A stretch of DNA of 64,000 nt, from the NCBI RefSeq assembly GCF_057098645.1, contig NZ_CM169472.1. The stretch is one strand, 5' to 3'. Made by a program: the position numbers. This document shows, in pieces, positions 21,885 to 24,800 of this stretch (its first letter is position 1; each line of letters opens with the position of its first letter).

Positions 21885-24800
21885 ACTACGTCCGACAAAC
21901 AAATTTCGTGCGAATTACCGCTAAAATCGCGTTTTCCTACCGACGCACACGTTTGCGTATCATATCAGAAAAAAGGGCCGGATGATTCCAGCCCTGTATT
22001 TTTACTTGCTAAACGCAGCCTGGAAGACAGCTACCAGCGCGTCGTTCTGACTCTGAGTCAGAGTATGACCTTTCGGATCGATGAACTGTAGGCTGCTGCG
22101 GTTATCTAAATCGCCAACCTGCAGTTTATAGTCACCGGATGCCAGGCCTGGATCGCTCGCGCCCAGTTCCTGCCAGTCGCTGTCAGACAGCGGCTTATAA
22201 GTTACGGCCATGTTGCCCTGCGAACGGGTGCTGTCGGTCACTTTCATGCCCACTTTTTCCAGCGCCGCTGGCAGACGTTGCCAAACCACATTGAACGGCC
22301 CGCGTACGACCAGCATTGGTAAACCGGTGTCATCAGCTGCACTTTGTACGTCCATAGTGGTGGAGGCACGATTTTGCGCAGCGTTCGCGGCGTCAGTGGC
22401 AGATTTATCCAGACCAGCGGAAATAACGTTCATCATCTCCGTGCTGTAACGCTGCATGGAAGCCGCGTCTGCAACCGGTTTGCCCGCCTGTTCCAGGTTC
22501 AACAGTTTAACCGTAACCGCCTGCTGATAACCCTGCGGCTTAACAGAGATTTGATAACGACCACGATACTGCTCGTCTTCGTCCAGACGGTTCCATTGTA
22601 CCCAATCGGTGGTCAGTGTCTGACCAGCATCATCACGTTGGGTGATGGTGTAGTTTTTCGCCTGCAGCACGCTAACCACCTGCGGCCACAGAGTATTGCC
22701 ACGACCATTTTCCACCAGCAATGAAGCGGTATCGCCCGTGAACTGGGTACGCGCGCCAGAAACCAGTGCCAGCGGCTGGGCTGGTGGACGAATGTCCAGC
22801 GCCTTACCGACAGCACCACTACCGTTGGTCACCGGGATTGCATAATCACCGGAGGTCACCGGCAAAATCATTCCAGCCGGGGCATGAAGCTCCGCAAGCG
22901 GTGCCGCTTCCAGGTAGGCTTCATCACCACTGACCTGACGCTTATAGCGTGAGTCAGAACTACAGGCAGCGAGTAATAAAACAAGCGAAACACCCGCAAC
23001 CTTTGCCAGGCGCGACTTTTGAACAGAGTAAGCCATCAAATCTCCCTAAACTTTACAGCAAACCGGCATGCTTAAGCGCCGCTCTGACCGTCTCACGACC
23101 ACTGTCGGTGATTGGTGTCATTGGCAGGCGCAGCGTATCGGTCGCCACAAGACCCAGTTCCTTACATGCCCATTTCACCGGGATTGGATTGGGTTCGACA
23201 AATAGTTTGTTGTGTAATGGCATCAGACGCTGATTAATAACGCGTGCCTCGGCAAAATGCCCTTCTGCTGCCAGTTTGCACATCTGGGCCATATCACGCG
23301 CTGCGACGTTAGCCGTAACGGAAATAACCCCATGACCGCCTAATTGCATGAAGTCCAGCGCGCTCGCATCATCGCCGCTCAGCAGAACAAAATCATCTGA
23401 AACCAGCTCTTTGATCTGGTTTACACGCGTTAAGTTCCCTGTTGCCTCTTTGATTCCGATAATATTTTTTACTTTCGCCAGACGGCCCACCGTTTCCGGG
23501 AGCAGATCGCAGCCAGTACGGGACGGCACATTATACAGAATTTGCGGCAGGTCAGTATGCTCAGCGATGGCTTTGAAATGCTGATACAAACCTTCTTGCG
23601 ACGGACGATTGTAGTAAGGGGTTACCGTCAGGCAGCCGACGATACCACTGTCATTGAAGCGCTGCGTCAGGCTAATGGCTTCCGCAGTAGCGTTAGCACC
23701 GGTCCCGGCAATCACCGGAATGCGCCCGTCAGCCAGCTCCAGCGTCATCATCACCACATCAGCATGTTCGTCATGATTTAAGGTAGCGGACTCGCCAGTG
23801 GTGCCAACAGAAACGATCGCCGAAGTACCGCTGGCGACATGATAATCAATCAGTTTTTTCAAGCTAGCCCGACAGACATTACCTTTTTCATCCATCGGAG
23901 TAACAATCGCGACAATACTTCCCGTGAACATGGGCCATCCTCTGTGCAAACAAGTGTCTCAATGGTACGTTTGGTATGGCATTAAAAGCAAGCAGACAGA
24001 ACCGTTCTGATTGTTGTATGCATGTTTTTTTTATGCTTTCCTTAAGAACAACTCACCCCTTAAAGGAATAACCAGTTTGACACTGTCATCGCAACATTAT
24101 CTGGTGATCACTGCGTTGGGTGCCGATCGCCCTGGAATTGTGAACACCATCACCCGTCATGTCAGTAGTTGCGGCTGTAATATTGAAGACAGTCGCCTGG
24201 CGATGCTGGGAGAAGAGTTCACGTTTATCATGCTGCTTTCCGGTTCATGGAATGCCATTACTCTGATTGAATCAACGTTACCGTTGAAAGGTGCCGAACT
24301 GGATCTTTTAATCGTGATGAAGCGCACGACGGCGCGTCCGCGTCCGCCAATGCCAGCATCTGTCTGGGTTCAGGTCGATGTGGCAGACTCCCCGCATTTA
24401 ATTGAACGCTTCACAGCACTTTTCGACACGCATCATATGAACATTGCGGAGCTGGTGTCGCGCACGCAACCTGCTGAAAATGAACGGGCTGCACAGTTGC
24501 ATATTCAGATTACTGCCCACAGCCCCGCATCTGCGGACGCAGCAAATATTGAGCAAGCGTTCAAAGCCCTATGTACAGAACTCAATGCACAAGGCAGTAT
24601 TAACGTCGTCAATTATTCCCAACATGATGAACAGGATGGAGTTAAGTAATGAATCCACTGAAAGCCGGTGATATCGCACCGAAATTTAGCTTGCCGGATC
24701 AAGACGGAGAACAAGTTAATTTGACCGACTTCCAGGGACAGCGTGTTCTGGTTTATTTCTACCCGAAAGCCATGACCCCCGGCTGTACCGTACAGGCCTG

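Follow-up and report, generated by a model that had tools for sequence, protein, structure and literature searches.

The window, a stretch of 64,000 nucleotides that was analysed as a whole, is E. coli chromosome. Open reading frames and the annotation of strain MG1655 give the gene order tmcA, ypfJ, purC, bamC, dapA … uraA, upp, purM, purN … guaBA, in which upp lies on the minus strand and purM and purN lie on the plus strand, from position 46866 onwards. A 401-nt query around the purC site has matches in 5425 of 5426 complete E. coli genomes, with bamC and purC annotated beneath it, and strain UTME-3 carries it at 100% identity. The genes, operators and promoter elements discussed below are as follows.

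21076..21789, minus strand: purC coding sequence (SAICAR synthetase, 237 amino acids), with the first base of its ATG at 21789
21943..21958, minus strand: purC PUR box (PurR operator), ACGCAAACGTGTGCGT on the purC strand and ACGCACACGTTTGCGT on the plus strand, spanning −6 to +10
21952, minus strand: purC transcription start (A), inside the PUR box, giving a 163-nt 5′ UTR (Kim et al. 2012)
21959..21967, minus strand: extended −10 element of purC, TGATATGAT, with TG at −15/−14 and TATGAT at −12 to −7, placed by comparing the sequence with the mapped start
21968..21995, minus strand: intrinsic terminator of bamC (stem-loop 21974..21995 and T-run), from a terminator scan and a cross-genus alignment
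46787..46802, plus strand: purMN PUR box (PurR operator), TCGCAAACGTTTGCTT, spanning −35 to −20
46807..46815, plus strand: extended −10 element of purM, TGTTAGAAT, placed by comparing the sequence with the mapped start, in agreement with Mendoza-Vargas 2009
46822, plus strand: purM transcription start (G), giving a 44-nt 5′ UTR (Kim et al. 2012)
46866..47903, plus strand: purM, with a GTG start
47903..48541, plus strand: purN

Elsewhere in the window, positions 38833..40283 hold 1.45 kb that MG1655 lacks; this insertion lies at the 3′ end of focB, alters the C terminus of FocB and codes for a 398-amino-acid IS110-family transposase (39062..40258; Pfam DEDD_Tnp_IS110 and Transposase_20). The upp–purM interval also varies among genera: it holds a glycoside hydrolase family 1 gene in Klebsiella, Enterobacter and Trabulsiella (L084, L085 and L089) and none in Escherichia, Salmonella, Pantoea, Hafnia or Siccibacter, and the purM operator is the same either way.

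PurR operators at purC and purMN

The sequence-only reading had placed near-consensus PurR operators upstream of purC and purM. Both 16-mers are present in the sequence, and both positions had to be shifted by one base: acgcaaacgtgtgcgt reads as the reverse complement of 21943..21958 instead of 21944..21959, and tcgcaaacgtttgctt lies at 46787..46802, not at 46786..46801. The distance of about 150 bp that had been given between the purC box and its gene is accurate, as 153 nt separate the end of the box from the ATG. Both boxes fit the 16-bp imperfect palindrome ACGNAAACGTTTGCNT, each with a central CpG, and they depart from the perfect palindrome ACGCAAACGTTTGCGT at one position (purC) and two positions (purM). 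Three matches to ACGCAAACGTTTGCGT with at most three mismatches occur in the window, versus 0.5 expected from shuffles.

A weight-matrix scan with a PurR motif had been proposed as a check on these sites. We built the matrix from 24 PurR motifs of Table 1 in Cho et al. 2011 (PMC3159470), excluding the four sites of the window itself, and scored both strands (128,000 positions). The purC box ranks first, at 18.67 bits, and the purM box third, at 16.97 bits; both are well over chance, with exact score distributions giving expectations per window of 0.04 and 0.11 at those respective scores. Counting every match of at least 16.97 bits, we observed three, versus a mean of 0.25 in 200 dinucleotide-preserving shuffles. 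Both scores lie within the range of the 24 training sites (11.4–25.6 bits).

The second-ranked match, ACGGCAACGATTGCGC (45438..45453, 18.1 bits), is located 376 nt into the uraA coding sequence and is also found in MG1655. We considered this site as a new operator and rejected it. The peptide PAAMGAIVAVIGLE encoded over it is invariant in eight other genera. Of these, only E. fergusonii and Salmonella retain the DNA motif, which synonymous changes have destroyed in the remaining six (−7.6 to 6.6 bits); Table 1 of Cho et al. 2011 contains no ChIP–chip peak at this position. The site is probably a coincidence of coding sequence. Two weaker matches in the window are both in that table: the published site upstream of guaB, GCGTAACCGATTGCAT (59780..59795, 15.2 bits), and CCGGAAGCGATTGCCT (41490..41505, 13.8 bits), which lies within the 5′ end of yfgO (perM) and faces bepA.

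We are nearly certain that the two palindromes are the PurR operators established for the promoters of purC and purMN in E. coli, and these operators are already known in every respect that matters. Cho et al. 2011 list ACGCACACGTTTGCGT for purC and TCGCAAACGTTTGCTT for purM–purN, verbatim, as the motifs under ChIP–chip peaks obtained with tagged PurR, with log2 enrichments for purC and purM–purN of 2.08 with adenine versus 1.52 and 0.98 without it. The same study describes purC and purMN as genes of the IMP pathway under repression by PurR–hypoxanthine, and cites Meng et al. 1990 for their purR-dependent regulation. In the IPOD-HR work of Freddolino et al. 2021 (PMC8282354), the PurR site of the purC promoter is a worked example (their Fig. 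1C): an occupancy peak seen at the site in rich medium disappears when purR is deleted or minimal medium is used, and the occupancy of RNA polymerase at the purC promoter goes up in the purR deletion. All of this binding and expression evidence is from K-12, whereas the window is from another strain; occupancy in vivo and its dependence on PurR and on purine supply are taken from the literature on identical K-12 sequences.

The purC upstream region differs from that of MG1655 only at +12 (21941) and +14 (21939), outside the box (GTCGGTAGG versus GTCTGCAGG). These substitutions make for a rare purC allele: of 5426 E. coli records, only 26 match 21905..22000 at 99% identity or better. For the promoter region of purM, 5423 of 5424 E. 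coli genomes reach at least 99% identity.

Both boxes also stand out as phylogenetic footprints of the kind expected of a PurR operator. For purC, we scanned species-representative genomes for PurC, which yielded 80 loci, and looked in the 450 bp upstream of each for its best-scoring PUR box. A strong box was found at 45 of the 80 loci in this Enterobacterales scan: ACGCAAACGTGTGCGT is unchanged in nearly all Enterobacteriaceae, and another strong box precedes purC in Erwinia, Pantoea, Serratia, Providencia, Morganella and Edwardsiella. The remaining 35 loci have no strong box within the 450 bp, and the arrangement is therefore not universal. These loci include Yersinia, Photorhabdus, Pectobacterium, Rahnella, Proteus, Gilliamella, Pseudomonas and others (for example, L019, L022, L027, L035 and L041–L043), as well as a few Enterobacteriaceae such as Mangrovibacter and Cedecea neteri. 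In an alignment of the purC upstream region from 16 genera of Enterobacteriaceae, all 16 columns of the box are invariant and form the longest invariant run, set within a variable flanking leader; the other invariant columns fall in the terminator stem, the T-run and the Shine–Dalgarno/ATG end.

For purM, we used PurM homologues to retrieve eight loci, all of them in other genera. The box, TCGCAAACGTTTGC(T/C)T, is kept in all eight, and CTGnTAGAAT follows it on the 3′ side at a fixed spacing in the seven genera that can be aligned over the box. The distance from the box to the GTG is about 78 nt except in Hafnia (L088, 161 nt) and Siccibacter (L090, 114 nt), which have unrelated insertions of their own.

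The purC leader and its insertion

Between the operator and purC lies a leader with the following parts.

21790..21952, minus strand: purC 5′ leader, 163 nt, from the mapped start and folding
21818..21920, minus strand: 103-bp insertion specific to Escherichia, with the imperfect direct repeats GATTTTAGCGGTAATTCGCAC and GATTTTAAAACGTTAATTCACAC at its bounds
21853..21899, no strand assigned: REP element within the insertion, from inverted repeats, a repeated core, genomic matches and a match to naRNA4

A long and structured 5′ leader had been claimed for purC from the sequence, and this description holds: the UTR is 163 nt long and contains a REP hairpin at +54 to +100. Folding of a 166-nt leader RNA gives a minimum free energy of −44.2 kcal/mol (z = −1.96), and 7 of 200 shuffled sequences fold as stably; the leader is structured, but not exceptionally so. 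The REP had also been described as lying next to the operator. It does lie between the box and the ATG, but 43 nt separate it from the box, on the downstream side.

The distance from the purC box to the ATG is 168–169 nt in E. coli and E. albertii, and 65–68 nt in Enterobacter, Citrobacter, Pseudocitrobacter, Phytobacter, Leclercia and Cedecea. The long leader is due to the 103-bp REP-bearing insertion in the Escherichia lineage, and 13 other genera in the purC alignment have the same operator without the insertion. The long leader is a lineage-specific insertion, not a general trait of purC control. The REP-bearing segment entered an ancestral leader of about 60 nt in the Escherichia lineage, and relatives have leaders of about this length. 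The direct repeats GATTTTAGCGGTAATTCGCAC and GATTTTAAAACGTTAATTCACAC are spaced 103 nt apart, and Citrobacter has one copy only. These imperfect repeats of about 21–23 bp, which flank the insert, duplicate ancestral leader sequence; REP elements are not known to produce long target duplications, and such flanks are unusual for them. Kluyvera (L018, 1370..1503), with 130 nt between box and ATG, has an unrelated insertion of its own.

The element itself has the features of a REP, being an imperfect palindrome of about 35 bp with many genomic copies and an extragenic location, here in the 5′ UTR of purC. Its hairpin occupies 21857..21884 (arms 21857..21869 and 21872..21884), and an outer hairpin pairs 21853..21861 with 21891..21899; the two are partly mutually exclusive because they have 21857..21861 in common. 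The 24-nt core GGATGCGGCGTGAACGCCTTATCC is repeated in the window at 17155..17178 and 43703..43726, with one and two mismatches, where none is expected by chance. Because this core recurs, the 401-nt query that spans the REP has a median of six matching places per E. coli genome, versus one for an adjacent 96-nt query without the REP. The segment also has a weak, sub-threshold match in Rfam to the REP-derived family naRNA4. A riboswitch or curated RNA leader was considered and rejected: no Rfam family reaches threshold within 21000..23000, and 13 other genera lack the part of the leader that is structured.

We considered whether the REP-bearing leader could itself be regulatory, as an attenuator, a determinant of stability or a protein- or RNA-binding hairpin, and so provide a second, Escherichia-specific layer of purC control. 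The length of 163 nt, the two overlapping and partly exclusive hairpins and a fold somewhat more stable than that of shuffled sequences are in keeping with such a role, as is the fact that E. albertii and 5405 of 5426 E. coli genomes have kept the insert. However, the 13 genera that do without the insert have an identical operator, no Rfam family matches at threshold and purC is not among the entries listed in the 3′-end mapping supplement of Adams 2021, which would register premature 3′ ends in the leader. Moreover, the insert is drifting. Three sequences from Escherichia are 100% identical in the box, in the −10 element and over the proximal 28 nt of the leader, whereas identity in the insert is 84–88%, compared with 86–94% at third codon positions of purC. 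This drift at roughly the silent-site rate points to the insert being probably neutral, a tolerated passenger outside the control mechanism, and we regard a regulatory leader as unlikely. Slightly less likely again is a compound proposal, in which the REP insertion has been co-opted for post-transcriptional control of purC and, separately, the uraA site at 45438..45453 is a young PurR roadblock on upp–uraA. If this were true, a two-hairpin switch or a site for a REP-recognizing factor would tune the stability or translation of purC mRNA independently of PurR.

With separate insertions in several lineages, the part of these leaders that runs from the operator to the ribosome-binding site seems to tolerate insertions, and the 103-bp insertion in Escherichia appears to have no effect on the operator. 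This adds a modest point to what is known of purC: its operator, its −10 element and the end of its leader that binds the ribosome are fixed across Enterobacteriaceae, and the stretch between them has accepted insertions.

Promoter geometry and repression

The sequence-only reading had named mapped transcription starts as a further check. Kim et al. 2012 (PMC3415461, supplementary file 2) report a purC start at U00096.2 2595803 on the minus strand (24 reads, UTR of 163) and a purM start at U00096.2 2619175 on the plus strand (40 reads, 44-nt UTR). With the box coordinates of Cho et al. 2011 as the bridge between the two numberings, these starts fall at 21952 and 46822 of the window, and both are compatible with operator function. 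For purM, Mendoza-Vargas 2009 independently arrived at the same −10 element (GTTAGAAT) and set the start 40 nt ahead of the gene. The purC start is backed by one high-throughput dataset, that of the 24 reads; it has no entry in the Mendoza-Vargas 2009 list, and the expected start coordinates are absent from the supplements of Ettwiller 2016.

The extended −10 element of purC is the same in E. coli, E. albertii, Citrobacter and Pseudocitrobacter. A two-hexamer promoter scan found nothing at purC, where the −35 region has no TTGACA-like hexamer; the scan was empty because this is an extended −10 promoter without a −35 element. The bamC terminator has a second role, in that it also supplies the purC promoter with its spacer and −35 region; the −35 position falls in the loop and stem of the terminator. 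Across genera, pairing of the terminator stem is kept despite changes on both arms (GGGCTGG/CCAGCCC, GGGCTGG/CCGGCCC and GGCCGG/CCGGCC).

The positions of the boxes beside the −10 elements fit occlusion of RNA polymerase, and from this geometry we infer promoter occlusion as the mechanism at both promoters. When hypoxanthine or guanine is plentiful, a dimer of PurR, a LacI-family protein, binds each CpG-centred 16-bp palindrome. At purC, the operator (−6 to +10) lies immediately 3′ of the TG-extended −10 element TGATATGAT; at purMN, the operator (−35 to −20) lies immediately 5′ of the TG-extended −10 element TGTTAGAAT. In either case, bound PurR would cover DNA that RNA polymerase requires, and initiation would be blocked.

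The purC box begins just 9 nt past the T-run of the bamC terminator, which raises the alternative that it serves mainly as a roadblock to transcripts reading through from dapA–bamC, as in purB, rather than as a promoter operator. PurR roadblocks are documented at purB and purR (Cho et al. 2011). However, the primary start lies inside the purC box with a conserved extended −10 element immediately upstream, the bamC terminator is canonical (a 9-pair GC-rich hairpin followed by the T-run) and RNA polymerase occupancy at the purC promoter goes up when purR is deleted. A roadblock as the main function is therefore very improbable, more so than a regulatory leader, and the two roles are not mutually exclusive at purC. 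That the palindromes are chance matches or sites of another LacI-family repressor has next to no probability: CG-centred palindromes are common to LacI/GalR-family operators and the equally high-scoring uraA site looks coincidental, but this alternative is refuted in practice by ChIP–chip with tagged PurR, by the loss of IPOD-HR occupancy in the purR deletion and by conservation across genera of two sites that lie exactly on pur-gene promoters, where 0.04–0.11 matches are expected per window.

The operators at purC and purMN make two steps in the de novo synthesis of purines responsive to how much purine is available, which is textbook regulation. The main use of the two sites is as a positive control, in that real operators were recoverable by reading sequence without other data.

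Comparison with known operators and REP elements

The purC operator of K-12 has the same 16-bp sequence, promoter, terminator, REP-bearing leader and distance to the ATG as that of the window, and differs only at +12 and +14. For purMN, the window and K-12 agree in every base of the 16-bp sequence and of the whole 111-bp promoter region, with no detectable difference. The core of the REP in the purC leader, GGATGCGGCGTGAACGCCTTATCC, recurs elsewhere in E. coli genomes, as in other REP/BIME elements of the species. REPs usually sit between or after genes, whereas the purC-leader REP is in a 5′ UTR, as a single, partly degenerate copy.

The operators of purF, purL, purEK, purHD and purT belong to the same family of CG-centred palindromes (ACGNAAACGTTTGCNT) and also overlap promoters. 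PurR sites generally lie between −35 and −10 (Cho et al. 2011), a position that the purM box fits, whereas the purC box is further downstream, over the start. The intragenic operators of purB and purR share their motif and repressor with the purC and purM sites; they are located downstream of the promoter, in transcribed or coding sequence, and block elongation, whereas the purC and purM sites overlap the region of initiation.
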